From the IMG/VR virus record IMGVR_UViG_644736362_000006: DNA of 42,891 nucleotides; one strand, written 5' to 3'. A program made the position numbers and the translations under genes. The stretch is from a virus (Duplodnaviria; Heunggongvirae; Uroviricota; Caudoviricetes). Under the pieces are notes generated by a model. It had not been told where the DNA came from and did no database searches. It saw nothing but the letters and a program-made list of their open reading frames with translations. Positions 1-18,644 of the stretch are shown piece after piece (position 1 is the stretch's first letter; every line of letters starts with the position of its first letter).

Positions 1-591
1 TTATACGGCTTTTTTTACCTCCTGTGGTTCCTGTGAAGGTACTACAACACTTTCCTGTTCATGAATCCCATACTTTGACAAAATCTCTTTGCGTTTTTCT
101 TCAGGTAATGCATCTAGCATCATCAACGTCTGAATACTTTGCTGTGAAAATCCTATAAAGCTGTAAAGTTTCTGTTCATTAAATACAAGAGGCATTAACG
201 CCAACAACCCCCCTTTACTTAAAAGTTTCAGTGCCTTGCGTGCTTCATCTGGTTCCAGCTCTTCAATCATATTGATTAAGGTTGTGGTTAATTTGTTTAT
301 CAGTTCCGAAGAATCCTGTTTCTCATTGGCTTGAGCACCAGTATCCGGTGTGGATAACCCCAAGTGCGCAATAACTTGCTCTCGTTCTTTGGTGGGCATC
401 GACATCACATCGTATTCAACAGCTTTCCCCCCCTTGACACCTTCCTTTTTTTGCTTCGTCCAGCCTTGAACATTTGCTCGATAGTGAACACCAGCAACAG
501 ATCCAGGCATACCATCAGCAGCCATAATTTCTTGCGGCGAACACCAAATTGACTTTTCAGTATTATTCTTTTCTATAAAGTTACTTTTCAA
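1..591 (-). CDS. c: Phage Mu repressor c, complete 196 aa (stop codon at 1-3); codon 47 is Gln
   Basis: Minus-strand ORF translation MKSNFIEKNNTEKSIWCSPQEIMAADGMPG... recognised as Mu Repc; gene is divergent from ner as in the Mu left end. Confidence 0.9.
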   Translation of the reverse strand: MKSNFIEKNNTEKSIWCSPQEIMAADGMPGSVAGVHYRANVQGWTKQKKEGVKGGKAVEYDVMSMPTKEREQVIAHLGLSTPDTGAQANEKQDSSELINKLTTTLINMIEELEPDEARKALKLLSKGGLLALMPLVFNEQKLYSFIGFSQQSIQTLMMLDALPEEKRKEILSKYGIHEQESVVVPSQEPQEVKKAV

Positions 592-760
592 AATTTAAAC
601 TCCTTATTTATCAACGCGTTAATCAGTAATCAAAGGAATTTACCAAAAAGCAGCTTTACAAAAAGCTTTTCAGTAATTATCTTTTTAGTAAGCTAGCTAA
701 GTTTTTACACTTAGTTAAATTGCTAACTTTATAGATTACAAAACTTAGGAGGGTTTTTAA
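592..760. promoter_or_regulatory. Mu early operator/promoter region (O1-O3 with Pe and Pc, IHF site) between divergent c and ner
   Basis: AT-rich 170 bp divergent intergenic region between c and ner, with palindromic agctttacaaaaagctttt element; individual operator boundaries not resolved. Confidence 0.6.
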
Positions 761-988
761 ATGTGTTCCAACGAAAAGGCCCGTGATTGGCATCGTGCGG
801 ATGTGATTGCGGGACTTAAGAAAAGAAAGCTCTCTTTATCAGCTCTTTCCCGGCAGTTTGGTTATGCGCCAACTACATTAGCTAATGCGCTAGAACGACA
901 CTGGCCAAAGGGTGAGCAGATTATTGCTAACGCCTTAGAAACTAAACCGGAAGTAATCTGGCCTAGCCGATATCAAGCAGGTGAATAA
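761..988 (+). CDS. ner: Phage Mu Ner, early lytic regulator, 75 aa
   Basis: ORF translation [48 protein letters not shown]... recognised as Mu Ner. Confidence 0.92.
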
Positions 989-989
989 C

Positions 990-2798
990 ATGGAACTTTG
1001 GGTATCACCGAAAGAGTGTGCGAATCTTCCTGGTTTGCCGAAAACATCGGCTGGTGTGATTTATGTTGCTAAAAAGCAAGGATGGCAAAACCGCACTAGA
1101 GCAGGTGTCAAAGGTGGTAAAGCAATTGAATACAATGCGAACTCTTTACCTGTTGAAGCGAAAGCGGCGTTATTGCTGAGACAAGGAGAGATTGAAACAA
1201 GCCTGGGGTATTTTGAAATCGCCCGCCCCACGCTGGAAGCCCATGATTATGATCGTGAGGCACTGTGGAGCAAATGGGATAACGCCAGCGATTCCCAGCG
1301 CAGACTTGCTGAAAAATGGTTGCCTGCGGTTCAGGCTGCAGACGAAATGCTGAACCAGGGGATTTCAACGAAAACGGCTTTTGCGACCGTTGCAGGGCAT
1401 TACCAGGTCAGCGCATCCACTTTGCGGGACAAGTATTACCAGGTACAGAAGTTTGCGAAGCCTGACTGGGCGGCTGCACTTGTTGATGGACGTGGAGCAT
1501 CCCGTCGCAATGTTCACAAAAGTGAATTTGACGAGGATGCCTGGCAGTTTCTGATTGCAGATTATCTGCGACCGGAAAAACCCGCTTTCCGCAAATGTTA
1601 TGAGCGTCTGGAACTGGCAGCCCGCGAGCATGGCTGGAGTATTCCCTCCCGTGCCACGGCCTTTCGCCGGATTCAGCAACTGGACGAGGCAATGGTTGTT
1701 GCCTGTCGTGAAGGTGAACATGCACTGATGCATCTGATACCGGCACAGCAGCGAACTGTGGAACACCTGGACGCCATGCAGTGGATCAACGGCGACGGTT
1801 ATCTGCATAACGTCTTTGTACGCTGGTTTAACGGTGATGTGATCCGTCCGAAAACATGGTTCTGGCAGGATGTGAAAACCCGAAAAATTCTGGGCTGGCG
1901 CTGCGATGTGAGCGAGAACATTGATTCAATTCGCCTCTCGTTCATGGATGTTGTGACTCGCTACGGTATCCCGGAGGATTTTCACATCACCATTGATAAC
2001 ACCCGTGGTGCTGCGAATAAATGGCTGACGGGAGGCGCGCCCAATCGCTACCGCTTTAAGGTAAAAGAGGACGATCCAAAAGGACTGTTTTTACTGATGG
2101 GGGCGAAAATGCACTGGACAAGCGTTGTTGCCGGTAAAGGCTGGGGCCAGGCAAAACCTGTTGAACGTGCTTTCGGTGTTGGTGGGCTTGAGGAATACGT
2201 TGATAAGCATCCGGCACTGGCTGGCGCATATACGGGGCCAAATCCGTAGGCAAAACCTGATAACTATGGCGACCGCGCTGTTGATGCAGAGCTGTTTCTG
2301 AAAACCCTTGCCGAAGGTGTGGCGATGTTCAATGCCAGAACAGGCCGTGAAACAGAAATGTGCGGGGGCAAACTCTCGTTTGATGATGTTTTCGAGCGTG
2401 AATACGCCAGAACGATTGTGCGTAAGCCAACCGAAGAACAAAAACGGATGCTGTTACTGCCTGCCGAGGCGGTGAACGTTTCACGCAAAGGCGAGTTTAC
2501 GCTTAAAGTTGGCGGCTCCCTTAAAGGCGCGAAAAACGTTTATTACAACATGGCATTAATGAATGCCGGCGTGAAAAAAGTTGTGGTCAGGTTTGATCCG
2601 CAGCAGCTACACAGCACGGTTTATTGCTACACCCTGGACGGTCGGTTTATCTGTGAAGCGGAATGTCTGGCACCTGTTGCATTTAATGATGCTGCGGCAG
2701 GCCGTGAATATCGCCGCCGCCAGAAACAACTGAAATCTGCGACGAAAGCAGCCATTAAGGCGCAGAAACAAATGGACGCGCTGGAAGTTGCTGAACTG
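990..2798 (+). pseudogene. A: Phage Mu transposase A, 3'-truncated (A') and interrupted by an in-frame TAG at 2247-2249 (codon 420); lacks the C-terminal domain
   Basis: ATG at 990 gives [32 protein letters not shown]...; the 422-aa and 220-aa track ORFs are in the same frame separated only by TAG; Mu-like reading stops near 2796 where antisense lambda ea22 begins. Confidence 0.85.
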
Positions 2799-3209
2799 CT
2801 GCCGCAGAAACTCTTCCAGGTCACCAGTGCAGTGCTTGATAACAGGAGTCTTCCCAGGATGGCGAACAACAAGAAACTGGTTTCCGTCTTCACGGACTTC
2901 GTTGCTTTCCAGTTTAGCAATACGCTTACTCCCATCCGAGATAACACCTTCGTAATACTCACGCTGCTCGTTGAGTTTTGATTTTGCTGTTTCAAGCTCA
3001 ACACGCAGTTTCCCTACTGTTAGCGCAATATCCTCGTTCTCCTGGTCGCGGCGTTTGATGTATTGCTGGTTTCTTTCCCGTTCATCCAGCAGTTCCAGCA
3101 CAATCGATGGTGTTACCAATTCATGGAAAAGGTCTGCGTCAAATCCCCAGTCGTCATGCATTGCCTGCTCTGCCGCTTCACGCAGTGCCTGAGAGTTAAT
3201 TTCGCTCAC
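2797..3209 (-). CDS. ea22: Lambda Ea22, N-terminal about 138 codons only (3'-truncated at the Mu A' junction)
   Basis: Minus ORF begins [28 protein letters not shown]...; expected stop for a 182-aa Ea22 near 2661 is missing and the ORF runs into antisense Mu A. Confidence 0.7.
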
Positions 3210-3427
3210 TTCGAACCTCTCTGTTTACTGATAAGTTCCAGATCCTCCTGGCAACTTGCACAAGTCCGACAACCCTGAACGACCAGGCGTCTTCGTTCAT
3301 CTATCGGATCGCCACACTCACAACAATGAGTGGCAGATATAGCCTGGTGGTTCAGGCGGCGCATTTTTATTGCTGTGTTGCGCTGTAATTCTTCTATTTC
3401 TGATGCTGAATCAATGATGTCTGCCAT
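3206..3427 (-). CDS. Lambda Orf73, TraR/DksA-like C4 zinc-finger protein, 73 aa
   Basis: ORF with CxxC...CxxC spacing (CCECGDPIDERRRLVVQGCRTCASCQ); position immediately upstream of ea22. Confidence 0.75.
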   Translation of the reverse strand: MADIIDSASEIEELQRNTAIKMRRLNHQAISATHCCECGDPIDERRRLVVQGCRTCASCQEDLELISKQRGSK

Positions 3428-3652
3428 CTTTCATTAATCCCTGAACTGTTGGTTAATACGCTTGAGGGTGAATGCGAATAATAAAAAAGGAGCCTGTAGC
3501 TCCCTGATGATTTTGCTTTTCATGTTCATCGTTCCTTAAAGACGCCGTTTAACATGCCGATTGCCAGGCTTAAATGAGTCGGTGTGAATCCCATCAGCGT
3601 TACCGTTTCGCGGTGCTTCTTCAGTACGCTACGGCAAATGTCATCGACGTTT

Positions 3653-3838
3653 TTATCCGGAAACTGCTGTCTGGCTTTTTTTGATTTCAGAATTAGCCTG
3701 ACGGGCAATGCTGCGAAGGGCGTTTTCCTGCTGAGGTGTCATTGAACAAGTCCCATGTCGGCAAGCATAAGCACACAGAATATGAAGCCCGCTGCCAGAA
3801 AAATGCATTCCGTGGTTGTCATACCTGGTCTCTCTCAT
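3653..3838 (-). CDS. Lambda Orf61
   Basis: 61-aa ORF in expected position and orientation between ea22 and exo. Confidence 0.7.
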   Translation of the reverse strand: MRETRYDNHGMHFSGSGLHILCAYACRHGTCSMTPQQENALRSIARQANSEIKKSQTAVSG

Positions 3839-4010
3839 CTGCTTCTGCTTTCGCCACCATCATTTCCAGCTTTTGTGAAAGGGATGCGGCTAACGTATGA
3901 AATTCTTCGTCTGTTTCTACTGGTATTGGCACAAACCTGATTCCAATTTGAGCAAGGCTATGTGCCATCTCGATACTCGTTCTTAACTCAACAGAAGATG
4001 CTTTGTGCAT
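3819..4010 (-). CDS. Lambda Orf63
   Basis: 63-aa [26 protein letters not shown]... overlapping orf61 and orf60a as in lambda. Confidence 0.75.
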   Translation of the reverse strand: MHKASSVELRTSIEMAHSLAQIGIRFVPIPVETDEEFHTLAASLSQKLEMMVAKAEADERDQV

Positions 4011-4165
4011 ACAGCCCCTCGTTTATTATTTATCTCCTCAGCCAGCCGCTGTGCTTTCAGTGGATTTCGGATAACAGAAAGGCCGGGAAATACCCAGCCT
4101 CGCTTTGTAACGGAGTAGACGAAAGTGATTGCGCCTACCCGGATATTATCGTGAGGATGCGTCAT
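3983..4165 (-). CDS. Lambda Orf60a
   Basis: 60-aa ORF from the second Met of the track ORF, start overlapping the exo stop. Confidence 0.7.
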
Positions 4166-4842
4166 CGCCATTGCTCCCCAAATACAAAACCAATTTCAGC
4201 CAGTGCCTCGTCCATTTTTTCGATGAACTCCGGCACGATCTCGTCAAAACTCGCCATGTACTTTTCATCCCGCTCAATCACGACATAATGCAGGCCTTCA
4301 CGCTTCATACGCGGGTCATAGTTGGCAAAGTACCAGGCATTTTTTCGCGTCACCCACATGCTGTACTGCACCTGGGCCATGTAAGCTGACTTTATGGCCT
4401 CGAAACCACCGAGCCGGAACTTCATGAAATCCCGGGAGGTAAACGGGCATTTCAGTTCAAGGCCGTTGCCGTCACTGCATAAACCATCGGGAGAGCAGGC
4501 GGTACGCATACTTTCGTCGCGATAGATGATCGGGGATTCAGTAACATTCACGCCGGAAGTGAATTCAAACAGGGTTCTGGCGTCGTTCTCGTACTGTTTT
4601 CCCCAGGCCAGTGCTTTAGCGTTAACTTCCGGAGCCACACCGGTGCAAACCTCAGCAAGCAGGGTGTGGAAGTAGGACATTTTCATGTCAGGCCACTTCT
4701 TTCCGGAGCGGGGTTTTGCTATCACGTTGTGAACTTCTGAAGCGGTGATGACGCCGAGCCGTAATTTGTGCCACGCATCATCCCCCTGTTCGACAGCTCT
4801 CACATCGATCCCGGTACGCTGCAGGATAATGTCCGGTGTCAT
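4162..4842 (-). CDS. exo: Lambda exonuclease (Red alpha), 226 aa
   Basis: [68 protein letters not shown]... recognised as lambda Exo. Confidence 0.97.
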
Positions 4843-5624
4843 GCTGCCACCTTCTGCTCTGCGGCTTTCTGTTTCAGGAATCCAAGAGCTTTTACTGCTT
4901 CGGCCTGTGTCAGTTCTGACGATGCACGAATGTCGCGGCGAAATATCTGGGAACAGAGCGGCAATAAGTCGTCATCCCATGTTTTATCCAGGGCGATCAG
5001 CAGAGTGTTAATCTCCTGCATGGTTTCATCGTTAACCGGAGTGATGTCGCGTTCCGGCTGACGTTCTGCAGTGTATGCAGTATTTTCGACAATGCGCTCG
5101 GCTTCATCCTTGTCATAGATACCAGCAAATCCGAAGGCCAGACGGGCACACTGAATCATGGCTTTATGACGTAACATCCGTTTGGGATGCGACTGCCACG
5201 GCCCCGTGATTTCTCTGCCTTCGCGAGTTTTGAATGGTTCGCGGCGGCATTCATCCATCCATTCGGTAACGCAGATCGGATGATTACGGTCCTTGCGGTA
5301 AATCCGGCATGTACAGGATTCATTGTCCTGCTCAAAGTCCATGCCATCAAACTGCTGGTTTTCATTGATGATGCGGGACCAGCCATCAACGCCCACCACC
5401 GGAACGATGCCATTCTGCTTATCAGGAAAGGCGTAAATTTCTTTCGTCCACGGATTAAGGCCGTACTGGTTGGCAACGATCAGTAATGCGATGAACTGCG
5501 CATCGCTGGCATCACCTTTAAATGCCGTCTGGCGAAGAGTGGTGATCAGTTCCTGTGGGTCGACAGAATCCATGCCGACACGTTCAGCCAGCTTCCCAGC
5601 CAGCGTTGCGAGTGCAGTACTCAT
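4839..5624 (-). CDS. bet: Lambda Bet (Red beta) single-strand annealing protein, 261 aa
   Basis: [69 protein letters not shown]... recognised as lambda Bet. Confidence 0.97.
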
Positions 5625-5629
5625 TCGTT

Positions 5630-6046
5630 TTATACCTCTGAATCAATATCAACCTGGTGGTGAGCAATGGTTTCAACCATGTACCGGATGTGTTCTGCCA
5701 TGCGCTCCTGAAACTCAACATCGTCATCAAACGCACGGGTAATGGATTTTTTGCTGGCCCCGTGGCGTTGCAAATGATCGATGCATAGCGATTCAAACAG
5801 GTGCTGGGGCAGGCCTTTTTCCATGTCGTCTGCCAGTTCTGCCTCTTTCTCTTCACGGGCGAGCTGCTGGTAGTGACGCGCCCAGCTCTGAGCCTCAAGA
5901 CGATCCTGAATGTAATAAGCGTTCATGGCTGAACTCCTGAAATAGCTGTGAAAATATCGCCCGCGAAATGCCGGGCTGATTAGGAAAACAGGAAAGGGGG
6001 TTAGTGAATGCTTTTGCTTGATCTCAGTTTCAGTATTAATATCCAT
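5630..6046 (-). CDS. gam: Lambda Gam, RecBCD inhibitor, 138 aa
   Basis: [90 protein letters not shown]... recognised as lambda Gam. Confidence 0.97.
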
Positions 6047-6144
6047 TTTTTATAAGCGTCGACGGCTTCACGAAACATCTTTTCATCGCCAATAAAAGTG
6101 GCGATAGTGAATTTAGTCTGGATAGCCATAAGTGTTTGATCCAT
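6001..6144 (-). CDS. kil: Lambda Kil, 47 aa
   Basis: Internal Met of track ORF 6001..6270 gives [47 protein letters not shown]. Confidence 0.85.
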
Positions 6145-6277
6145 TCTTTGGGACTCCTGGCTGATTAAGTATGTCGATAAGGCGTTTCCATCCGTCACGT
6201 AATTTACGGGTGATTCGTTCAAGTAAAGATTCGGAAGGGCAGCCAGCAACAGGCCACCCTGCAATGGCATATTGCAT
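6113..6277 (-). CDS. cIII: Lambda CIII, 54 aa (below the ORF-track length cutoff)
   Basis: Reverse complement from 6277 reads ATGCAATATGCCATTGCAGGGTGGCCT... = [54 protein letters not shown], stop at 6113-6115. Confidence 0.9.
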   Translation of the reverse strand: MQYAIAGWPVAGCPSESLLERITRKLRDGWKRLIDILNQPGVPKNGSNTYGYPD

Positions 6278-6334
6278 GGTGTGCTCCTTATTTATACATA
6301 ACGAAAAACGCCTCGACCTGCAGGGGGGGGGGGG

Positions 6335-6560
6335 CGCTGAGGTCTGCCTCGTGAAGAAGGTGTTGCTGACTCATACCAGGCCTGAATCGCCCCATCATCC
6401 AGCCAGAAAGTGAGGGAGCCACGGTTGATGAGAGCTTTGTTGTAGGTGGACCAGTTGGTGATTTTGAACTTTTGCTTTGCCACGGAACGGTCTGCGTTGT
6501 CGGGAAGATGCGTGATCTGATCCTTCAACTCAGCAAAAGTTCGATTTATTCAACAAAGCC
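6335..6560 (-). mobile_element. IS903 end fragment: terminal inverted repeat (6543-6560) plus first ~65 codons of the transposase, truncated at the G tail
   Basis: Reverse complement of 6543-6560 is ggctttgttgaataaatc; minus ORF MKDQITHLPDNADRSVAKQKFKITNWSTYNKALINRGSLTFWLDDGAIQAWYE then runs into poly-G. Confidence 0.8.
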
Positions 6561-6620
6561 GCCGTCCCGTCAAGTCAGCGTAATGCTCTGCCAGTGTTAC
6601 AACCAATTAACCAATTCTGA

Positions 6621-7436
6621 TTAGAAAAACTCATCGAGCATCAAATGAAACTGCAATTTATTCATATCAGGATTATCAATACCATATTTTTGAAAAAGCC
6701 GTTTCTGTAATGAAGGAGAAAACTCACCGAGGCAGTTCCATAGGATGGCAAGATCCTGGTATCGGTCTGCGATTCCGACTCGTCCAACATCAATACAACC
6801 TATTAATTTCCCCTCGTCAAAAATAAGGTTATCAAGTGAGAAATCACCATGAGTGACGACTGAATCCGGTGAGAATGGCAAAAGCTTATGCATTTCTTTC
6901 CAGACTTGTTCAACAGGCCAGCCATTACGCTCGTCATCAAAATCACTCGCATCAACCAAACCGTTATTCATTCGTGATTGCGCCTGAGCGAGACGAAATA
7001 CGCGATCGCTGTTAAAAGGACAATTACAAACAGGAATCGAATGCAACCGGCGCAGGAACACTGCCAGCGCATCAACAATATTTTCACCTGAATCAGGATA
7101 TTCTTCTAATACCTGGAATGCTGTTTTCCCGGGGATCGCAGTGGTGAGTAACCATGCATCATCAGGAGTACGGATAAAATGCTTGATGGTCGGAAGAGGC
7201 ATAAATTCCGTCAGCCAGTTTAGTCTGACCATCTCATCTGTAACATCATTGGCAACGCTACCTTTGCCATGTTTCAGAAACAACTCTGGCGCATCGGGCT
7301 TCCCATACAATCGATAGATTGTCGCACCTGATTGCCCGACATTATCGCGAGCCCATTTATACCCATATAAATCAGCATCCATGTTGGAATTTAATCGCGG
7401 CCTCGAGCAAGACGTTTCCCGTTGAATATGGCTCAT
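6621..7436 (-). CDS. aph(3')-Ia: Aminoglycoside 3'-phosphotransferase APH(3')-Ia (kanamycin/neomycin resistance, Tn903 type), 271 aa
   Basis: ORF MSHIQRETSCSRPRLNSNMDADLYGYKWARDNVGQSGATIYRLYGKPDAPELFLKHGKGSVANDVTDEMVRLNWLTEFMPLPTIKHF... recognised as APH(3')-Ia. Confidence 0.97.
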   Translation of the reverse strand: MSHIQRETSCSRPRLNSNMDADLYGYKWARDNVGQSGATIYRLYGKPDAPELFLKHGKGSVANDVTDEMVRLNWLTEFMPLPTIKHFIRTPDDAWLLTTAIPGKTAFQVLEEYPDSGENIVDALAVFLRRLHSIPVCNCPFNSDRVFRLAQAQSRMNNGLVDASDFDDERNGWPVEQVWKEMHKLLPFSPDSVVTHGDFSLDNLIFDEGKLIGCIDVGRVGIADRYQDLAILWNCLGEFSPSLQKRLFQKYGIDNPDMNKLQFHLMLDEFF

Positions 7437-7599
7437 AACACCCCTTGTATTACTGTTTATGTAAGCAGACAGTTTTATTGTTCATGATGATATATTTTTA
7501 TCTTGTGCAATGTAACATCAGAGATTTTGAGACACAACGTGGCTTTCCCCCCCCCCTGCAGGTCGAGTGAAGCGTTATTGGTATGCGGTAAAACCGCAC

Positions 7600-7968
7600 T
7601 CAGGCGGCCTTGATAGTCATATCATCTGAATCAAATATTCCTGATGTATCGATATCGGTAATTCTTATTCCTTCGCTACCATCCATTGGAGGCCATCCTT
7701 CCTGACCATTTCCATCATTCCAGTCGAACTCACACACAACACCATATGCATTTAAGTCGCTTGAAATTGCTATAAGCAGAGCATGTTGCGCCAGCATGAT
7801 TAATACAGCATTTAATACAGAGCCGTGTTTATTGAGTCGGTATTCAGAGTCTGACCAGAAATTATTAATCTGGTGAAGTTTTTCCTCTGTCATTACGTCA
7901 TGGTCGATTTCAATTTCTATTGATGCTTTCCAGTCGTAATCAATGATGTATTTTTTGATGTTTGACAT
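7600..7968 (-). CDS. ea10: Lambda Ea10, 122 aa
   Basis: ORF MSNIKKYIIDYDWKASIEIEIDHDVMTEEKLHQINNFWSDSEYRLNKHGSVLNAVLIMLAQ... recognised as lambda Ea10. Confidence 0.9.
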   Translation of the reverse strand: MSNIKKYIIDYDWKASIEIEIDHDVMTEEKLHQINNFWSDSEYRLNKHGSVLNAVLIMLAQHALLIAISSDLNAYGVVCEFDWNDGNGQEGWPPMDGSEGIRITDIDTSGIFDSDDMTIKAA

Positions 7969-8150
7969 CTGTTCATATCCTCACAGATAAAAAATCGCCC
8001 TCACACTGGAGGGCAAAGAAGATTTCCAATAATCAGAACAAGTCGGCTCCTGTTTAGTTACGAGCGACATTGCTCCGTGTATTCACTCGTTGGAATGAAT
8101 ACACAGTGCAGTGTTTATTCTGTTATTTATGCCAAAAATAAAGGCCACTA

Positions 8151-8351
8151 TCAGGCAGCTTTGTTGTTCTGTTTACCAAGTTCTCTGGCAATCATTGCCG
8201 TCGTTCGTATTGCCCATTTATCGACATATTTCCCATCTTCCATTACAGGAAACATTTCTTCAGGCTTAACCATGCATTCCGATTGCAGCTTGCATCCATT
8301 GCATCGCTTGAATTGTCCACACCATTGATTTTTATCAATAGTCGTAGTCAT
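8151..8351 (-). CDS. ral: Lambda Ral, restriction alleviation, 66 aa
   Basis: ORF MTTTIDKNQWCGQFKRCNGCKLQSECMVKPEEMFPVMEDGKYVDKWAIRTTAMIARELGKQNNKAA. Confidence 0.92.
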   Translation of the reverse strand: MTTTIDKNQWCGQFKRCNGCKLQSECMVKPEEMFPVMEDGKYVDKWAIRTTAMIARELGKQNNKAA

Positions 8352-8545
8352 ACGGATAGTCCTGGTATTGTTCCATCACATCCTGAGGATGCTCTTCGAA
8401 CTCTTCAAATTCTTCTTCCATATATCACCTTAAATAGTGGATTGCGGTAGTAAAGATTGTGCCTGTCTTTTAACCACATCAGGCTCGGTGGTTCTCGTGT
8501 ACCCCTACAGCGAGAAATCGGATAAACTATTACAACCCCTACAGT

Positions 8546-9100
8546 TTGATGAGTATAGAAATGGATCCACTCGTTATTCTCGGACGAGTGTTCAGTAATG
8601 AACCTCTGGAGAGAACCATGTATATGATCGTTATCTGGGTTGGACTTCTGCTTTTAAGCCCAGATAACTGGCCTGAATATGTTAATGAGAGAATCGGTAT
8701 TCCTCATGTGTGGCATGTTTTCGTCTTTGCTCTTGCATTTTCGCTAGCAATTAATGTGCATCGATTATCAGCTATTGCCAGCGCCAGATATAAGCGATTT
8801 AAGCTAAGAAAACGCATTAAGATGCAAAACGATAAAGTGCGATCAGTAATTCAAAACCTTACAGAAGAGCAATCTATGGTTTTGTGCGCAGCCCTTAATG
8901 AAGGCAGGAAGTATGTGGTTACATCAAAACAATTCCCATACATTAGTGAGTTGATTGAGCTTGGTGTGTTGAACAAAACTTTTTCCCGATGGAATGGGAA
9001 GCATATATTATTCCCTATTGAGGATATTTACTGGACTGAATTAGTTGCCAGCTATGATCCATATAATATTGAGATAAAGCCAAGGCCAATATCTAAGTAA
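8546..9100 (+). CDS. sieB: Lambda SieB, superinfection exclusion protein
   Basis: ORF MMSIEMDPLVILGRVFSNEPLERTMYMIVIWVGLLLLSPDNWPEYVNERIGIPHVWHVFVFALAF..., on the strand opposite N as in lambda. Confidence 0.9.
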   Translation: MMSIEMDPLVILGRVFSNEPLERTMYMIVIWVGLLLLSPDNWPEYVNERIGIPHVWHVFVFALAFSLAINVHRLSAIASARYKRFKLRKRIKMQNDKVRSVIQNLTEEQSMVLCAALNEGRKYVVTSKQFPYISELIELGVLNKTFSRWNGKHILFPIEDIYWTELVASYDPYNIEIKPRPISK

Positions 9101-9424
9101 CTAGATAAGAGGAATCGATTTTCCCTTAATTTTCTGGCGTCCACTGCATGTTATGCCGCGTTCGCCAGGCTTGCTGTACCATGTGCGCTGATTCTTGCGC
9201 TCAATACGTTGCAGGTTGCTTTCAATCTGTTTGTGGTATTCAGCCAGCACTGTAAGGTCTATCGGATTTAGTGCGCTTTCTACTCGTGATTTCGGTTTGC
9301 GATTCAGCGAGAGAATAGGGCGGTTAACTGGTTTTGCGCTTACCCCAACCAACAGGGGATTTGCTGCTTTCCATTGAGCCTGTTTCTCTGCGCGACGTTC
9401 GCGGCGGCGTGTTTGTGCATCCAT
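9101..9424 (-). CDS. N: Lambda N antiterminator, 107 aa
   Basis: Internal Met of track ORF gives MDAQTRRRERRAEKQAQWKAANPLLVGVSAKPVNRPILSLNRKPKSRVESALNPIDLTVLAEYHKQIESNLQRIERKNQRTWYSKPGERGITCSGRQKIKGKSIPLI. Confidence 0.95.
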   Translation of the reverse strand: MDAQTRRRERRAEKQAQWKAANPLLVGVSAKPVNRPILSLNRKPKSRVESALNPIDLTVLAEYHKQIESNLQRIERKNQRTWYSKPGERGITCSGRQKIKGKSIPLI

Positions 9425-9574
9425 CTGGATTCTCCTGTCAGTTAGCTTTGGTGGTGTGTGGCAGTTGTAGTCCTGAACGAAAACCCCCCGCGATTGGCAC
9501 ATTGGCAGCTAATCCGGAATCGCACTTACGGCCAATGCTTCGTTTCGTATCACACACCCCAAAGCCTTCTGCTT

Positions 9575-9614
9575 TGAATGCTGCCCTTCTTCAGGGCTTA
9601 ATTTTTAAGAGCGT
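9575..9614 (-). promoter_or_regulatory. nutL (boxA and boxB) N-utilisation site
   Basis: Minus strand contains boxB hairpin gccctgaagaagggc (9578-9594) and boxA cgctcttaa (9606-9614). Confidence 0.85.
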
Positions 9615-9645
9615 CACCTTCATGGTGGTCAGTGCGTCCTGCTGA

Positions 9646-9715
9646 TGTGCTCAGTATCACCGCCAGTGGTATTTATGTCAACACCGCCAGAGATAATTTA
9701 TCACCGCAGATGGTT
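9646..9715 (-). promoter_or_regulatory. pL promoter with operators oL1 (9655-9671), oL2 (9679-9695), oL3 (9699-9715)
   Basis: 17-bp operator sequences tatcaccgccagtggta, caacaccgccagagata, tatcaccgcagatggtt; -35 TTGACA and -10 GATACT on minus strand. Confidence 0.9.
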
Positions 9716-9888
9716 ATCTGTATGTTTTTTATATGAATTTATTTTTTGCAGGGGGGCATTGTTTGGTAGGTGAGAGATCTGAATTGCTATGTTTAGTGAG
9801 TTGTATCTATTTATTTTTCAATAAATACAATTGGTTATGTGTTTTGGGGGCGATCGTGAGGCAAAGAAAACCCGGCGCTGAGGCCGGG

Positions 9889-10323
9889 TTATTCTTGTTC
9901 TCTGGTCAAATTATATAGTTGGAAAACAAGGATGCATATATGAATGAACGATGCAGAGGCAATGCCGATGGCGATAGTGGGTATCATGTAGCCGCTTATG
10001 CTGGAAAGAAGCAATAACCCGCAGAAAAACAAAGCTCCAAGCTCAACAAAACTAAGGGCATAGACAATAACTACCGATGTCATATACCCATACTCTCTAA
10101 TCTTGGCCAGTCGGCGCGTTCTGCTTCCGATTAGAAACGTCAAGGCAGCAATCAGGATTGCAATCATGGTTCCTGCATATGATGACAATGTCGCCCCAAG
10201 ACCATCTCTATGAGCTGAAAAAGAAACACCAGGAATGTAGTGGCGGAAAAGGAGATAGCAAATGCTTACGATAACGTAAGGAATTATTACTATGTAAACA
10301 CCAGGCATGATTCTGTTCCGCAT
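9889..10323 (-). CDS. rexB: Lambda RexB, 144 aa membrane protein
   Basis: ORF MRNRIMPGVYIVIIPYVIVSICYLLFRHYIPGVSFSAHRDGLGATLSSYAGTMIAILIAALTF... Confidence 0.95.
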   Translation of the reverse strand: MRNRIMPGVYIVIIPYVIVSICYLLFRHYIPGVSFSAHRDGLGATLSSYAGTMIAILIAALTFLIGSRTRRLAKIREYGYMTSVVIVYALSFVELGALFFCGLLLLSSISGYMIPTIAIGIASASFIHICILVFQLYNLTREQE

Positions 10324-10338
10324 AATTACTCCTGATAA

Positions 10339-11178
10339 TTAATCCTTAACTTTGCCCACCTGCCTTTTAAAACATTCCAGTATATCACTTTTCATTCTTG
10401 CGTAGCAATATGCCATCTCTTCAGCTATCTCAGCATTGGTGACCTTGTTCAGAGGCGCTGAGAGATGGCCTTTTTCTGATAGATAATGTTCTGTTAAAAT
10501 ATCTCCGGCCTCATCTTTTGCCCGCAGGCTAATGTCTGAAAATTGAGGTGACGGGTTAAAAATAATATCCTTGGCAACCTTTTTTATATCCCTTTTAAAT
10601 TTTGGCTTAATGACTATATCCAATGAGTCAAAAAGCTCCCCTTCAATATCTGTTGCCCCTAAGACCTTTAATATATCGCCAAATACAGGTAGCTTGGCTT
10701 CTACCTTCACCGTTGTTCGGCCGATGAAATGCATATGCATAACATCGTCTTTGGTGGTTCCCCTCATCAGTGGCTCTATCTGAACGCGCTCTCCACTGCT
10801 TAATGACATTCCTTTCCCGATTAAAAAATCTGTCAGATCGGATGTGGTCGGCCCGAAAACAGTTCTGGCAAAACCAATGGTGTCGCCTTCAACAAACAAA
10901 AAAGATGGGAATCCCAATGATTCGTCATCTGCGAGGCTGTTCTTAATATCTTCAACTGAAGCTTTAGAGCGATTTATCTTCTGAACCAGACTCTTGTCAT
11001 TTGTTTTGGTAAAGAGAAAAGTTTTTCCATCGATTTTATGAATATACAAATAATTGGAGCCAACCTGCAGGTGATGATTATCAGCCAGCAGAGAATTAAG
11101 GAAAACAGACAGGTTTATTGAGCGCTTATCTTTCCCTTTATTTTTGCTGCGGTAAGTCGCATAAAAACCATTCTTCAT
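10339..11178 (-). CDS. rexA: Lambda RexA, 279 aa
   Basis: ORF MKNGFYATYRSKNKGKDKRSINLSVFLNSLLADNHHLQVGSNYLYIHKIDGKTFLFTKTNDKSLVQKINRSKASVEDIKN... Confidence 0.95.
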   Translation of the reverse strand: MKNGFYATYRSKNKGKDKRSINLSVFLNSLLADNHHLQVGSNYLYIHKIDGKTFLFTKTNDKSLVQKINRSKASVEDIKNSLADDESLGFPSFLFVEGDTIGFARTVFGPTTSDLTDFLIGKGMSLSSGERVQIEPLMRGTTKDDVMHMHFIGRTTVKVEAKLPVFGDILKVLGATDIEGELFDSLDIVIKPKFKRDIKKVAKDIIFNPSPQFSDISLRAKDEAGDILTEHYLSEKGHLSAPLNKVTNAEIAEEMAYCYARMKSDILECFKRQVGKVKD

Positions 11179-11290
11179 AATTCAATCCATTTACTATGTT
11201 ATGTTCTGAGGGGAGTGAAAATTCCCCTAATTCGATGAAGATTCTTGCTCAATTGTTATCAGCTATGCGCCGACCAGAACACCTTGCCGA

Positions 11291-12007
<717 letters not shown>

Positions 12008-12014
12008 TTAAATC

Positions 12015-12090
12015 TATCACCGCAAGGGATAAATATCTAACACCGTGCGTGTTGACTATTTTACCTCTGGCGGTGATAATGGTTGCATGT
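12015..12090. promoter_or_regulatory. oR3-oR2-oR1 operators with divergent pRM and pR promoters
   Basis: tatcaccgcaagggata (12015-12031), taacaccgtgcgtgttg (12038-12054), tacctctggcggtgata (12062-12078); pR -35 ttgact and -10 gataat. Confidence 0.92.
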
Positions 12091-12095
12091 ACTAA

Positions 12096-12305
<210 letters not shown>

Positions 12306-12312
12306 ATAACCC

Positions 12313-12344
12313 CGCTCTTACACATTCCAGCCCTGAAAAAGGGC
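12313..12344 (+). promoter_or_regulatory. nutR (boxA cgctctta, boxB gccctgaaaaagggc)
   Basis: boxA at 12313-12320 and boxB hairpin at 12330-12344 immediately downstream of cro. Confidence 0.88.
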
Positions 12345-12404
12345 ATCAAATTAAACCACACCTATGGTGTATGCATTTATTTGCATACATTCAATCAATT
12401 GTTA

Positions 12405-12445
12405 TCTAAGGAAATACTTACATATGGTTCGTGCAAACAAACGCA
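12405..12445 (-). promoter_or_regulatory. pRE promoter with CII binding site (TTGC-N6-TTGC) overlapping the cII start
   Basis: Minus strand ttgcgtttgtttgc at 12432-12445, inside the first cII codons. Confidence 0.7.
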
Positions 12446-12717
12446 ACGAGGCTCTACGAATCGAGAGTGCGTTGCTTAACAAAATCGCAATGCTTGGAAC
12501 TGAGAAGACAGCGGAAGCTGTGGGCGTTGATAAGTCGCAGATCAGCAGGTGGAAGAGGGACTGGATTCCAAAGTTCTCAATGCTGCTTGCTGTTCTTGAA
12601 TGGGGGGTCGTTGACGACGACATGGCTCGATTGGCGCGACAAGTTGCTGCGATTCTCACCAATAAAAAACGCCCGGCGGCAACCGAGCGTTCTGAACAAA
12701 TCCAGATGGAGTTCTGA
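12424..12717 (+). CDS. cII: Lambda CII transcriptional activator, 97 aa
   Basis: Internal Met of track ORF gives MVRANKRNEALRIESALLNKIAMLGTEKTAEAVGVDKSQISRWKRDWIPKFSMLLAVLEWGVVDDDMARLARQVAAILTNKKRPAATERSEQIQMEF. Confidence 0.95.
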   Translation: MVRANKRNEALRIESALLNKIAMLGTEKTAEAVGVDKSQISRWKRDWIPKFSMLLAVLEWGVVDDDMARLARQVAAILTNKKRPAATERSEQIQMEF

Positions 12718-12739
12718 GGTCATTACTGGATCTATCAAC
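12663..12739 (-). ncRNA. oop: oop antisense RNA (about 77 nt) ending at the to terminator
   Basis: Minus-strand GC hairpin followed by T run (reverse complement of aataaaaaacgcccggcggcaacc at 12661-12684), located between cII 3' end and O start; ends placed from remembered lambda coordinates. Confidence 0.6.
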
Positions 12740-12749
12740 AGGAGTCATT

Positions 12750-13649
12750 ATGACAAATACAGCAAAAATACTCAACTTCGGCAGAGGTAACTTTGCCGGA
12801 CAGGAGCGTAATGTGGCAGATCTCGATGATGGTTACGCCAGACTATCAAATATGCTGCTTGAGGCTTATTCGGGCGCAGATCTGACCAAGCGACAGTTTA
12901 AAGTGCTGCTTGCCATTCTGCGTAAAACCTATGGGTGGAATAAACCAATGGACAGAATCACCGATTCTCAACTTAGCGAGATTACAAAGTTACCTGTCAA
13001 ACGGTGCAATGAAGCCAAGTTAGAACTCGTCAGAATGAATATTATCAAGCAGCAAGGCGGCATGTTTGGACCAAATAAAAACATCTCAGAATGGTGCATC
13101 CCTCAAAACGAGGGAAAATCCCCTAAAACGAGGGATAAAACATCCCTCAAATTGGGGGATTGCTATCCCTCAAAACAGGGGGACACAAAAGACACTATTA
13201 CAAAAGAAAAAAGAAAAGATTATTCGTCAGAGAATTCTGGCGAATCCTCTGACCAGCCAGAAAACGACCTTTCTGTGGTGAAACCGGATGCTGCAATTCA
13301 GAGCGGCAGCAAGTGGGGGACAGCAGAAGACCTGACCGCCGCAGAGTGGATGTTTGACATGGTGAAGACTATCGCACCATCAGCCAGAAAACCGAATTTT
13401 GCTGGGTGGGCTAACGATATCCGCCTGATGCGTGAACGTGACGGACGTAACCACCGCGACATGTGTGTGCTGTTCCGCTGGGCATGCCAGGACAACTTCT
13501 GGTCCGGTAACGTGCTGAGCCCGGCCAAACTCCGCGATAAGTGGACCCAACTCGAAATCAACCGTAACAAGCAACAGGCAGGCGTGACAGCCAGCAAACC
13601 AAAACTCGACCTGACAAACACAGACTGGATTTACGGGGTGGATCTATGA
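12750..13649 (+). CDS. O: Lambda O replication initiator, 299 aa
   Basis: ORF MTNTAKILNFGRGNFAGQERNVADLDDGYARLSNMLLEAYSGADLTKRQFKVLLAILRKTYGWNKPMDRITDSQLSEITKLPVKRCNEAK... Confidence 0.97.
   Translation: MTNTAKILNFGRGNFAGQERNVADLDDGYARLSNMLLEAYSGADLTKRQFKVLLAILRKTYGWNKPMDRITDSQLSEITKLPVKRCNEAKLELVRMNIIKQQGGMFGPNKNISEWCIPQNEGKSPKTRDKTSLKLGDCYPSKQGDTKDTITKEKRKDYSSENSGESSDQPENDLSVVKPDAAIQSGSKWGTAEDLTAAEWMFDMVKTIAPSARKPNFAGWANDIRLMRERDGRNHRDMCVLFRWACQDNFWSGNVLSPAKLRDKWTQLEINRNKQQAGVTASKPKLDLTNTDWIYGVDL
13098..13230. other. ori lambda: four ~19-bp O-binding iterons followed by an AT-rich unwinding region
   Basis: Repeats catccctcaaaacgaggga / aatcccctaaaacgagggat / catccctcaaattgggggat / tatccctcaaaacaggggga, then A-rich tract aaaagaaaaaagaaaag. 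Confidence 0.9.
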
Positions 13650-14347
13650 AAAACATCGCCGCACAGATGGTTAACTTTGACCGTGAGCAGATGCGTCGGA
13701 TCGCCAACAACATGCCGGAACAGTACGACGAAAAGCCGCAGGTACAGCAGGTAGCGCAGATCATCAACGGTGTGTTCAGCCAGTTACTGGCAACTTTCCC
13801 GGCGAGCCTGGCTAACCGTGACCAGAACGAAGTGAACGAAATCCGTCGCCAGTGGGTTCTGGCTTTTCGGGAAAACGGGATCACCACGATGGAACAGGTT
13901 AACGCAGGAATGCGCGTAGCCCGTCGGCAGAATCGACCATTTCTGCCATCACCCGGGCAGTTTGTTGCATGGTGCCGGGAAGAAGCATCCGTTACCGCCG
14001 GACTGCCAAACGTCAGCGAGCTGGTTGATATGGTTTACGAGTATTGCCGGAAGCGAGGCCTGTATCCGGATGCGGAGTCTTATCCGTGGAAATCAAACGC
14101 GCACTACTGGCTGGTTACCAACCTGTATCAGAACATGCGGGCCAATGCGCTTACTGATGCGGAATTACGCCGTAAGGCCGCAGATGAGCTTGTCCATATG
14201 ACTGCGAGAATTAACCGTGGTGAGGCGATCCCTGAACCAGTAAAACAACTTCCTGTCATGGGCGGTAGACCTCTAAATCGTGCACAGGCTCTGGCGAAGA
14301 TCGCAGAAATCAAAGCTAAGTTCGGACTGAAAGGAGCAAGTGTATGA
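13646..14347 (+). CDS. P: Lambda P helicase loader, 233 aa
   Basis: ORF MKNIAAQMVNFDREQMRRIANNMPEQYDEKPQVQQVAQIINGVFSQLLATFPASLANRDQNEVNEIRRQWVLAFRENGITTMEQVN... Confidence 0.97.
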   Translation: MKNIAAQMVNFDREQMRRIANNMPEQYDEKPQVQQVAQIINGVFSQLLATFPASLANRDQNEVNEIRRQWVLAFRENGITTMEQVNAGMRVARRQNRPFLPSPGQFVAWCREEASVTAGLPNVSELVDMVYEYCRKRGLYPDAESYPWKSNAHYWLVTNLYQNMRANALTDAELRRKAADELVHMTARINRGEAIPEPVKQLPVMGGRPLNRAQALAKIAEIKAKFGLKGASV

Positions 14348-14634
14348 CGGGCAAAGAGGCAATTATTCATTACCTGGGGACGCATAATAGCTTCTGTGCG
14401 CCGGACGTTGCCGCGCTAACAGGCGCAACAGTAACCAGCATAAATCAGGCCGCGGCTAAAATGGCACGGGCAGGTCTTCTGGTTATCGAAGGTAAGGTCT
14501 GGCGAACGGTGTATTACCGGTTTGCTACCAGGGAAGAACGGGAAGGAAAGATGAGCACGAACCTGGTTTTTAAGGAGTGTCGCCAGAGTGCCGCGATGAA
14601 ACGGGTATTGGCGGTATATGGAGTTAAAAGATGA
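14344..14634 (+). CDS. ren: Lambda Ren, 96 aa
   Basis: ORF MTGKEAIIHYLGTHNSFCAPDVAALTGATVTSINQAAAKMARAGLLVIEGKVWRTVYYRFATREEREGK... Confidence 0.92.
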   Translation: MTGKEAIIHYLGTHNSFCAPDVAALTGATVTSINQAAAKMARAGLLVIEGKVWRTVYYRFATREEREGKMSTNLVFKECRQSAAMKRVLAVYGVKR

Positions 14635-14707
14635 CCATCTACATTACTGAGCTAATAACAGGCCTGCTGGTAATCGCAGGCCTTTTTATTTGGGGGAGAG
14701 GGAAGTC

Positions 14708-15148
14708 ATGAAAAAACTAACCTTTGAAATTCGATCTCCAGCACATCAGCAAAACGCTATTCACGCAGTACAGCAAATCCTTCCAGACCCAACCAAACCA
14801 ATCGTAGTAACCATTCAGGAACGCAACCGCAGCTTAGACCAAAACAGGAAGCTATGGGCCTGCTTAGGTGACGTCTCTCGTCAGGTTGAATGGCATGGTC
14901 GCTGGCTGGATGCAGAAAGCTGGAAGTGTGTGTTTACCGCAGCATTAAAGCAGCAGGATGTTGTTCCTAACCTTGCCGGGAATGGCTTTGTGGTAATAGG
15001 CCAGTCAACCAGCAGGATGCGTGTAGGCGAATTTGCGGAGCTATTAGAGCTTATACAGGCATTCGGTACAGAGCGTGGCGTTAAGTGGTCAGACGAAGCG
15101 AGACTGGCTCTGGAGTGGAAAGCGAGATGGGGAGACAGGGCTGCATGA
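14708..15148 (+). CDS. ninB: Lambda NinB (Orf recombination mediator), 146 aa
   Basis: Internal Met gives MKKLTFEIRSPAHQQNAIHAVQQILPDPTKPIVVTIQERNRSLDQNRKLWACLGDV... Confidence 0.92.
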   Translation: MKKLTFEIRSPAHQQNAIHAVQQILPDPTKPIVVTIQERNRSLDQNRKLWACLGDVSRQVEWHGRWLDAESWKCVFTAALKQQDVVPNLAGNGFVVIGQSTSRMRVGEFAELLELIQAFGTERGVKWSDEARLALEWKARWGDRAA

Positions 15149-16017
15149 TAAATGTCGTTAGTTTCTCCGGTGGCAGGACGTCAGCATATTTGCTCTGGCT
15201 AATGGAGCAAAAGCGACGGGCAGGTAAAGACGTGCATTACGTTTTCATGGATACAGGTTGTGAACATCCAATGACATATCGGTTTGTCAGGGAAGTTGTG
15301 AAGTTCTGGGATATACCGCTCACCGTATTGCAGGTTGATATCAACCCGGAGCTTGGACAGCCAAATGGTTATACGGTATGGGAACCAAAGGATATTCAGA
15401 CGCGAATGCCTGTTCTGAAGCCATTTATCGATATGGTAAAGAAATATGGCACTCCATACGTCGGCGGCGCGTTCTGCACTGACAGATTAAAACTCGTTCC
15501 CTTCACCAAATACTGTGATGACCATTTCGGGCGAGGGAATTACACCACGTGGATTGGCATCAGAGCTGATGAACCGAAGCGGCTAAAGCCAAAGCCTGGA
15601 ATCAGATATCTTGCTGAACTGTCAGACTTTGAGAAGGAAGATATCCTCGCATGGTGGAAGCAACAACCATTCGATTTGCAAATACCGGAACATCTCGGTA
15701 ACTGCATATTCTGCATTAAAAAATCAACGCAAAAAATCGGACTTGCCTGCAAAGATGAGGAGGGATTGCAGCGTGTTTTTAATGAGGTCATCACGGGATC
15801 CCATGTGCGTGACGGACATCGGGAAACGCCAAAGGAGATTATGTACCGAGGAAGAATGTCGCTGGACGGTATCGCGAAAATGTATTCAGAAAATGATTAT
15901 CAAGCCCTGTATCAGGACATGGTACGAGCTAAAAGATTCGATACCGGCTCTTGTTCTGAGTCATGCGAAATATTTGGAGGGCAGCTTGATTTCGACTTCG
16001 GGAGGGAAGCTGCATGA
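15145..16017 (+). CDS. ninC: Lambda NinC, 290 aa
   Basis: Internal Met gives [65 protein letters not shown]... Confidence 0.92.
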
Positions 16018-16187
16018 TGCGATGTTATCGGTGCGGTGAATGCAAAGAAGATAACCGCTTCCGACCAAATCAACCTTACTGGAATCGATGGTGTCTCCGG
16101 TGTGAAAGAACACCAACAGGGGTGTTACCACTACCGCAGGAAAAGGAGGACGTGTGGCGAGACAGCGACGAAGTATCACCGACATAA
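16014..16187 (+). CDS. ninD: Lambda NinD, 57 aa cysteine-rich protein (below ORF-track cutoff)
   Basis: Manual translation from ATG at 16014: [57 protein letters not shown], stop at 16185-16187. Confidence 0.8.
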
Positions 16188-16336
16188 TCTGCGAAAACTG
16201 CAAATACCTTCCAACGAAACGCACCAGAAATAAACCCAAGCCAATCCCAAAAGAATCTGACGTAAAAACCTTCAACTACACGGCTCACCTGTGGGATATC
16301 CGGTGGCTAAGACGTCGTGCGAGGAAAACAAGGTGA
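16154..16336 (+). CDS. ninE: Lambda NinE, 60 aa
   Basis: [63 protein letters not shown]. Confidence 0.85.
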
Positions 16337-16503
16337 TTGACCAAAATCGAAGTTACGAACAAGAAAGCGTCGAGCGAGCTTTAACGTGCGCTAACTGCGG
16401 TCAGAAGCTGCATGTGCTGGAAGTTCACGTGTGTGAGCACTGCTGCGCAGAACTGATGAGCGATCCGAATAGCTCGATGCACGAGGAAGAAGATGATGGC
16501 TAA
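16333..16503 (+). CDS. ninF: Lambda NinF; start uncertain (GTG at 16333 overlapping the ninE stop, or upstream ATG at 16291)
   Basis: Cysteine-rich ORF ...[55 protein letters not shown]. Confidence 0.7.
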
Positions 16504-17107: not shown

Positions 17108-17310
17108 CGTTCTCAGTAAAAACCATTCCAGACATGCTCGTTGAAGCATACGGAAATCAGACAGAAGTAGCACGCAGACTGAAATGTAGTCGCGGTACGG
17201 TCAGAAAATACGTTGATGATAAAGACGGGAAAATGCACGCCATCGTCAACGACGTTCTCATGGTTCATCGCGGATGGAGTGAAAGAGATGCGCTATTACG
17301 AAAAAATTGA
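17104..17310 (+). CDS. ninH: Lambda NinH, 68 aa
   Basis: [71 protein letters not shown]. Confidence 0.9.
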
Positions 17311-18573: not shown

Positions 18574-18615
18574 CAGCATGATTGCCACGGATGGCAACAT
18601 ATTAACGGCATGATA

Positions 18616-18644
18616 TTGACTTATTGAATAAAATTGGGTAAATT
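18616..18644 (+). promoter_or_regulatory. pR' late promoter (-35 ttgact, 17-bp spacer, -10 taaatt) with overlapping qut site
   Basis: ttgact at 18616-18621 and taaatt at 18639-18644, directly downstream of Q. Confidence 0.8.

Follow-up and report, generated by a model that had tools for sequence, protein, structure and literature searches.

Authentic lambda exclusion and host-interaction genes in what is almost certainly an engineered placMu-type lacZ-fusion phage

Introduction

Fusion phages of the lambda placMu type that carry a kanamycin marker go back to Bremer, Silhavy, Weisemann and Weinstock (1984) and Bremer, Silhavy and Weinstock (1985); the latter reportedly placed the kan gene of these phages between cIII and ssb. 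Derivatives with an amber mutation in the A gene were made for stabilising the fusions. As published tools these phages appear in the reference list of PMC7315737, and a kanamycin-resistant strain which carries one of them, E. coli BW2952 (MC4100 malG::lambda placMu55), has been sequenced (PMC3708739).

Here we analyse IMG/VR virus record IMGVR_UViG_644736362_000006, a stretch of 42,891 nucleotides which in the following we call the window. An initial annotation had singled out the span 3206-11178 as a cluster of host-interaction and exclusion genes of phage lambda. We find that this span almost certainly comprises the left (pL) arm of authentic lambda together with its immunity region, set in prophage order inside an engineered lambda placMu-type lacZ-fusion phage.

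Layout of the window

Both ends of the window are foreign to lambda:

1-2808, plus strand: c-end of phage Mu, equal to Mu 339-3146 with one mismatch
1-591, minus strand: Mu c repressor, in the Mu c-end
761-988, plus strand: Mu ner, in the Mu c-end
From 990, plus strand: Mu A', with an amber codon at 2247 and truncated at its 3' end
42566-42891, minus strand: lacA', the N-terminal ~111 codons, reading towards lambda and joined to lambda 19998 inside stf/orf-401

The order is Mu c-ner-A' (1-2808), lambda 29985-48502, cos, lambda 1-19998 and lacA'. The matches to lambda form kilobase-scale blocks of 99.8-100% identity (E = 0), which is far above chance. Lambda 19999-29984 is absent, and with it the 3' part of stf, tfa, ea47/31/59, att, int, xis, ea8.5 and the 3' end of ea22; the b region is gone as well. 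Mu c-ner-A'(amber) stands in place of att-int-xis-ea8.5 and the 3' end of ea22, and lacA' stands in place of the b region, starting inside stf. lacA' matches the NCBIfam model of galactoside O-acetyltransferase at positions 3-119 of 203. Of the lac genes lacA' alone lies inside the window; lacY and the promoterless lacZ (or 'lacZ) that a placMu phage should have next to a Mu S end would be found past the right edge.

The amber codon in Mu A is a CAG to TAG change at codon 420, presumably A am1093. Mu and lambda are joined within a 10-bp microhomology (CTGCCGCAGA, 2799-2808). The initial annotation had weighed lambda itself against a mosaic lambdoid prophage. Neither fits: what the window contains is a lambda-Mu-lac hybrid made in the laboratory, without att, int and xis. 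Insertion of such a phage would proceed by helper-assisted Mu transposition and not by Int.

In the tail gene I an additional G at window position 37452 causes a frameshift. This copy may therefore not form plaques, unless the extra G is a sequencing error. A search of the window for hidden RNA genes with Rfam returned the cIII thermoregulator only, and no tRNAs were found.

The lambda genes of the span

The span and the genes named together with it contain the following lambda features:

3206-3427, minus strand: orf73, a TraR/DksA-family C4 zinc-finger protein of 73 aa, 0 nt differences from lambda 30392-30613
3653-6277, minus strand: orf61, orf63, orf60a, exo, bet, gam, kil and cIII (distal pL operon), identical to lambda except for orf63 N61D
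6232-6290, minus strand: cIII mRNA thermoregulator (Rfam RF01804)
7600-7968, minus strand: ea10 (ssb), DUF2528 (Pfam, E = 1.8e-47), identical to lambda
8151-8351, minus strand: ral, restriction alleviation, 66 aa, identical to lambda
8546-9100, plus strand: sieB, superinfection exclusion B, 184 aa, protein identical to lambda
9101-9502, minus strand: N antiterminator, identical to lambda
9653-9681, minus strand: pL promoter, TTGACA-17-GATACT, region identical to lambda
9889-10323, minus strand: rexB, 144 aa, identical to lambda
10339-11178, minus strand: rexA, 279 aa, identical to lambda
11291-12004, minus strand: cI repressor, head of the cI-rexA-rexB operon, identical to the reference
20523-20816, minus strand: bor lipoprotein, 97 aa, 0 nt differences from lambda, outside the DLP12 patch (see below)
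41532-42152, plus strand: lom, outer-membrane beta-barrel protein of 206 aa, exact DNA match to lambda 18965-19585

All seven genes named by the initial annotation (orf73, ral, sieB, rexB, rexA, bor and lom) lie where it had placed them, in canonical order, and their translations are identical to those of NC_001416. The annotation had proposed a protein alignment of each reading frame to lambda, in which divergence would speak for a mosaic prophage; we carried it out and found no divergence in any of them. Its view that these are well-described lambda genes and that none is novel is also borne out by the family models. RexA matches Pfam PF15969 with 327 bits and the PADLOC RexA model with E = 9e-110, and RexB the corresponding Pfam and PADLOC models with 305 bits and E = 8.6e-61, respectively. 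SieB scores 103.5 bits (PF14163), Bor 105 bits (Lambda_Bor, PF06291), Ral 162.5 bits over model positions 1-66 of 66 (PF11058) and Lom 182 bits over positions 1-199 of 199 (Ail_Lom, PF06316). For Orf73 the Pfam model zf-dskA_traR (PF01258) gives 34.8 bits, which is above its cut-off (24.9), and the TraR family model TIGR02419 gives 54.7 bits, slightly below its cut-off of 59.7; the cysteines of the zinc finger form two CxxC pairs (CCEC and CRTC). Orf73 also gave a marginal match to a PADLOC restriction-enzyme model, with E = 0.0099 and without any stretch that passed, which we regard as noise. The PADLOC search recovered RexA and RexB only, and SieB, Ral, Ea10, Bor and Lom gave no match; for SieB this is due to the content of that library.

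By megablast 84% of the span is covered by lambda in two pieces, and in this lambda part only two nucleotides differ from the reference. The change T>C at lambda 31016 causes N61D in orf63 and is silent in orf61, and A>G at 34934 does not alter SieB. Lambda isolate PV340536 has both changes. In the cI operon rexB follows directly downstream of rexA in the same orientation, and sieB is found between ral and N in opposite orientation to pL. At the positions of cI857, ind1 and Sam7 the window equals the reference record; the first two, lambda 37742 and 37589, both read C, and the mature repressor has Ala as residue 66. The cIII thermoregulator is intact at full length (59/59; 88.5 bits, gathering score 50) and lies 26 nt from the joint with the insertion described next.

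The kanamycin cassette

The initial annotation read 3206-11178 as lambda genes throughout. This holds for the lambda genes themselves, which are authentic, but 16% of the range is an engineered Tn903 aph(3')-Ia cassette which had gone unmentioned:

6317-7562 (1246 bp), no strand assigned: kan cassette, a pUC4K-type Tn903 fragment, non-lambda DNA at the lambda XhoI site
6330-6528, minus strand: remnant of the N-terminal part of the IS903 transposase, within the cassette
6621-7436, minus strand: aph(3')-Ia, aminoglycoside 3'-phosphotransferase of 271 aa (NCBIfam and Pfam)

The annotation had taken the named lambda genes for the nearest to accessory functions that the window has, yet the kanamycin-resistance gene is the most obvious accessory cargo. 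The protein reaches 649.9 bits with NCBIfam NF051474 (allele-level cut-off 625, full length 271/271) and E = 5.9e-32 with the Pfam APH model. The cassette sits between cIII (6113-6277) and ea10 (7600-7968), more precisely between lambda 33502 and 33499, the TCGA overhang being common to both sides. Its ends read CTCGAC-CTGCAG-G12 and C10-CTGCAG-GTCGAG; the sole lambda XhoI site (33498) has thus been turned into two SalI/XhoI hybrids, CTCGAC and GTCGAG, next to PstI sites and the G12 and C10 tails. Internal XhoI and HindIII sites are present as well. We presume that pUC4K itself (Vieira and Messing 1982) was the source.

Over 1213 bp the cassette is 100% identical to the aph(3')-Ia regions of many plasmids, among which NC_007293 includes the vector-type ends, and the plasmid matches annotate IS903 where the transposase remnant sits. 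Of the IS5-family transposase model only positions 1-41 are matched by the open reading frame 6292-6528 (36.6 bits, cut-off 140), which is thus truncated. A promoter-like site for aph is found at 7516-7487 on the minus strand. The gene reads in the same direction as pL, and between aph and cIII we found no terminator-like hairpin. Expressed from its own promoter, aph(3')-Ia would serve as the selectable marker of the construct.

A DLP12-type patch across cos

About 1.6 kb of the window (21049-22619) is sequence of the K-12 cryptic prophage DLP12 and spans cos. In lambda coordinates the patch runs from 46985 through cos to base 53, and the tract at 46985-48502 diverges by 2% from lambda. Within the patch the window agrees with DLP12 at each of the 30 sites where lambda and DLP12 differ. 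We also considered whether bor might be borD of DLP12 and rejected this, as all informative sites up to 21017 are those of lambda.

Discussion

The strongest competitor of the engineered fusion phage is the assumption that the true element is plain lambda and that the arrangement of Mu, lambda, kan and lac arose by an assembly chimera or vector contamination. Lambda, DLP12 and lac are repeats able to mislead a short-read assembly, the DLP12-like patch and the additional G in gene I could be consensus errors, and some sequencing errors have been described for the BW2952 genome (PMC3708739). Against this, the joint of Mu A' and ea22' recurs without mismatch in a 1.7-kb contig of the independent read set DRR002064, which also contains the T>C change at lambda 31016, and the assembly of these reads encodes the chimeric Ea22'-Mu protein specific to the joint with the same flanking genes. 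Moreover, the joints of the kan cassette obey an exact restriction-site logic, and in its overall size and layout the window is a coherent, packageable phage in line with the published design. We therefore hold the chimera to be very improbable. The Mu/lambda joint was found in no complete E. coli genome of the searched collection, which is without BW2952 (NC_012759), and an exact-match scan with one genome per species gave none; in these searches the DRR002064 contig is its only occurrence.

A natural mosaic lambdoid prophage with diverged or exchanged accessory genes would account for the presence of non-lambda DNA and for the 2%-divergent tract. Yet no named gene diverges, the proteins being 100% identical, and the divergent tract is K-12's own DLP12 at all informative sites. 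What is not lambda consists of Mu, lacA and a cloning cassette whose polylinker sites and homopolymer tails are signs of construction in vitro. The restriction-site hybrid joints and the 100% identity of the proteins refute this natural origin, to which we give practically no credence. Just as little is to be said for a wild-type lambda lysogen hit by a natural Tn903 transposition, since, although aph(3')-Ia and a remnant of the IS903 transposase are present, the latter is down to ~41 codons, att, int and xis are missing, Mu and lac flank the phage, and the joint sequences already refute it: at its ends the insert has, instead of IS903 terminal repeats, PstI sites, G/C tails and SalI/XhoI hybrids that lie exactly at the lambda XhoI site.

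Taking the window as an engineered placMu-type phage, we suggest the following picture of its gene activity. In the repressed prophage pRM would transcribe cI-rexA-rexB, as is established for lambda, and sieB, bor and lom would each be expressed from their own promoter; ral and orf73 belong to the pL operon and should yield product only upon induction or infection. RexA would sense an infecting phage, whereupon the membrane channel RexB would open and the infection, for example by T4 rII, would be aborted. Since both proteins are identical to those of lambda, they should depolarise the membrane and so exclude T4 rII and phages like it. SieB would abort some superinfecting lambdoid phages, Ral could ease type I restriction of unmodified DNA, Bor would confer serum resistance and Lom would be an Ail-like adhesin. 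For Rex, SieB, Ral, Bor and Lom we deduce these probable activities from protein identity to lambda and from the literature. Orf73 of lambda, identical in sequence, was shown experimentally to bind RNA polymerase and to inhibit rRNA promoters without ppGpp (PMC9239242). Here too it would bind RNA polymerase like TraR and shut down rRNA and ribosomal-protein promoters.

One could go further and speculate that read-through from aph leads to low-level expression of cIII-kil-gam-bet-exo-orf73 despite the cI-repressed pL, that together with Rex, SieB, Bor and Lom this makes the physiology of placMu fusion strains, BW2952 among them, less neutral than assumed, and that the DLP12 patch over cos reflects a real recombination between prophage and cryptic prophage. 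We consider this combined scenario unlikely.

The window should be labelled as a laboratory construct, that is, a placMu-type lacZ-fusion phage with a kan marker, and not as a natural prophage. Surveys of the accessory or defence genes of prophages should leave its resistance and defence genes out of the natural cargo. Users of such fusion strains should be aware that rexAB, sieB, bor, lom and aph(3')-Ia come with the insert and are predicted to be active. The genes are known genes in a known laboratory construct, and there is no new biology in them.

Compared with lambda (NC_001416/J02459 and the isolates KT232076, LC730321 and PV340536), lambda 29985-48502 and 1-19998 and their gene order are kept, whereas the lack of 19999-29984, the kan cassette at XhoI 33498, the DLP12-type patch and the additional G in gene I set the window apart. 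DLP12 (ybcV-ybcW-ylcI-cos-nohD) is alike in the sequence of the patch, but the flanks here, bor on one side and nu1 on the other, are lambda-type; the exchange was thus limited to the patch. From the pUC4K cassette, the presumed source, no difference was detected: both consist of Tn903 aph(3')-Ia with G/C tails at the ends, set within PstI and SalI sites, and both have internal XhoI and HindIII sites. The assignment to the placMu type is made from the part of the construct inside the window, lacZ and the Mu S end being expected outside it, and the numbered derivative may be either a protein or an operon fusion. With the lambda placMu kan phages the window shares the Mu c-end (c, ner, A) adjoining the early-left region of lambda, lac DNA on the J-lom side, a kan gene between cIII and ea10 (ssb) and the lack of an Int system. 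Finally, as in the stabilised placMu derivatives, Mu A carries an amber mutation.

Results

The initial annotation had left a choice between lambda itself and a mosaic lambdoid prophage. Neither fits the window, which is an engineered lambda-Mu-lac hybrid, a setting that the annotation passed over. Mapped on lambda, the whole window is divided as follows.

Layout of the window (lambda coordinates from NC_001416)
1-2798: non-lambda
2799-6316: lambda 29985-33502
6317-7562: non-lambda
7563-22566: lambda 33499-48502
22567-42565: lambda 1-19998, joined through cos
42566-42891: non-lambda

Lambda 19999-29984 is absent, and with it the b region, attP, int, xis and ea8.5. At the left end, window 1-2808 corresponds to phage Mu 339-3146 and departs from it at one base, the CAG>TAG change that creates an amber at codon 420 of gene A (window 2247). 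Gene A is truncated at Mu 3146, and its joint with lambda 29985 falls in a 10-bp microhomology (CTGCCGCAGA). As a result of this joint ea22 is cut, retaining the first 137 of its 182 codons and losing the C-terminal domain, and continues as a chimeric reading frame into antisense Mu sequence.

Reading frames at the Mu end
1-591, minus: Mu c repressor
761-988, plus: Mu ner
from 990: Mu gene A
2607-3209, minus: chimeric Ea22'-Mu open reading frame, 200 aa

The identical chimera with its neighbouring genes recurs without mismatch in the independent read set DRR002064; thus the Mu/lambda joint is genuine and was not created by this assembly.

At the other end the last lambda base is 19998; it falls within the side tail fibre gene stf (orf-401), of which 116 of 401 codons are retained. 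Joined to it is lacA' (about the first 111 codons, minus strand), which starts at the window edge and reads towards lambda. Truncated stf and lacA' together take up window 42217-42891.

Megablast against lambda covers 84% of 3206-11178, in two pieces. Within these coordinates, and absent from the initial annotation, lies a 1246-bp non-lambda insert (6317-7562). It has 100% identity to Tn903 aph(3')-Ia sequences carried by many plasmids. Its aph(3')-Ia reading frame (6621-7436, minus strand) scores 649.9 bits with the allele-level NCBIfam model for APH(3')-Ia (cut-off 625) and is adjoined by an IS903 transposase stub of about 41 codons. The insert ends read CTCGAC CTGCAG G12 ... C10 CTGCAG GTCGAG, that is, SalI/XhoI hybrid joints, PstI sites and homopolymer tails, and the insert sits exactly at the single XhoI site of lambda (33498) with the TCGA overhang on both sides. 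Transposition is ruled out as its origin by the joints, PstI sites, tails and exact position. The insert is the product of an in vitro ligation of a pUC4K-type SalI kan cassette.

The cassette is intergenic, between cIII (6113-6277) and ea10/ssb (7600-7968), and leaves the cIII thermoregulator (Rfam RF01804, 6232-6290) complete. A promoter-like site belonging to aph(3')-Ia lies at 7516-7487, and expression from it would confer kanamycin resistance as a selectable marker. The gene is co-oriented with pL, and a simple scan saw no terminator-like hairpin between it and cIII; it is therefore conceivable, as a speculation, that some aph(3')-Ia transcription reads through into cIII-kil-gam.

The lambda genes proposed for host interaction and exclusion are found where they had been placed, according to the list of open reading frames and a base-by-base comparison with NC_001416.

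Lambda genes of host interaction and exclusion
3206-3427, minus: orf73
8151-8351, minus: ral
8546-9100, plus: sieB
9889-10323, minus: rexB
10339-11178, minus: rexA
20523-20816, minus: bor
41532-42152, plus: lom

For each of the seven, the encoded protein shows 100% identity to its lambda counterpart, and the same is true of the products of exo, bet, gam, kil, cIII, ea10, N, cI and cro. Pfam matches above the curated cut-offs (zf-dskA_traR, Ral, SieB, RexB, RexA, Lambda_Bor, Ail_Lom) and PADLOC matches for RexA and RexB agree with the claim that these are well-described lambda genes, none of them novel. Since the named proteins do not diverge from lambda, the core of the initial annotation stands.

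Only two bases in the lambda part of 3206-11178 differ from NC_001416: lambda 31016 T>C (N61D in orf63, silent in orf61) and 34934 A>G (silent in sieB). Both are common to the sequenced lambda isolate PV340536, and the first is also present in the independent read-set contig; they are differences of the usual kind that separates laboratory stocks of lambda from the Sanger reference. From N through cro there is no base change. Likewise cI (11291-12004) and S (19250-19573) do not depart from the reference record; lambda positions 37589 and 37742 are C and 45352 is G, so the phage lacks the cI857, ind1 and Sam7 alleles.

Elsewhere, window 19682 (lambda 45618) differs by a base that is silent in R, and single bases differ in tail genes at window 32593, 32801, 34407, 35817 and 39467 (lambda 10028, 10236, 11842, 13252 and 16900). 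An additional G at window 36832 (lambda 14266/7), common to the lambda isolate KT232076, lengthens K to a 247-aa reading frame (36698-37441) and may be a correction of the old reference rather than a mutation. The same may possibly be true of the deletion of lambda G138 (window 22703/22704), which is also seen in DLP12, a cryptic prophage of E. coli K-12. A further G at window 37452, relative to both NC_001416 and KT232076, puts gene I (tail assembly) out of frame after codon 38. If this is not a sequencing error, the mutation is a real one that inactivates the gene, and the prophage would be defective.

Window 21049-22619 (about 1.6 kb; lambda 46985-48502 and through cos to base 53) agrees with DLP12 at all 30 informative sites and has lambda-type flanks on both sides. 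The corresponding DLP12 region is ybcV-ybcW-ylcI; bor lies outside the patch. Either recombination with the cryptic prophage of the host or an assembly consensus error accounts for it, and unless it is the latter, the patch is the only naturally arising mosaic feature of the window.

Discussion

The regulatory DNA is intact, including pL (TTGACA-17-GATACT, 9681-9653). In a repressed lambda prophage cI-rexA-rexB is transcribed from pRM. By established lambda biology, RexA would sense an infecting phage and activate the membrane channel RexB, and the resulting depolarisation of the cell would abort infection by T4 rII and similar phages. Certain superinfecting lambdoid phages are aborted by SieB, whose gene is transcribed in the direction opposite to pL. 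Both bor and lom are on in the lysogen, where they change the cell surface and confer serum resistance and adhesion. The N-dependent transcript from pL includes ral and orf73, and with Ral the balance at type I enzymes moves from restriction towards modification. In the manner of TraR, lambda Orf73 binds RNA polymerase; it inhibits rRNA and ribosomal-protein promoters and increases the burst size (PMC9239242). Given identical proteins, Rex, SieB, Bor, Lom and Ral would be expected to play their established lambda roles here.

In the placMu kan phages the kan gene reportedly lies between cIII and ssb, and A-amber derivatives of placMu phages are also reported. The window has kan in this position, and it shares with this family the c-end of Mu (c, ner and a defective A), a lambda part devoid of Int and lac DNA on the J-lom side. 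Its layout follows the design that Bremer, Silhavy and Weinstock gave their lambda placMu kan fusion phages. Their 1984 lambda placMu paper is cited in PMC7315737. The genes, the gene order, the cassette and the construct are all already known. PMC3708739 describes the sequenced, kanamycin-resistant strain BW2952 as MC4100 malG::lambda placMu55, and the phage of the window is likely the one carried by this strain.
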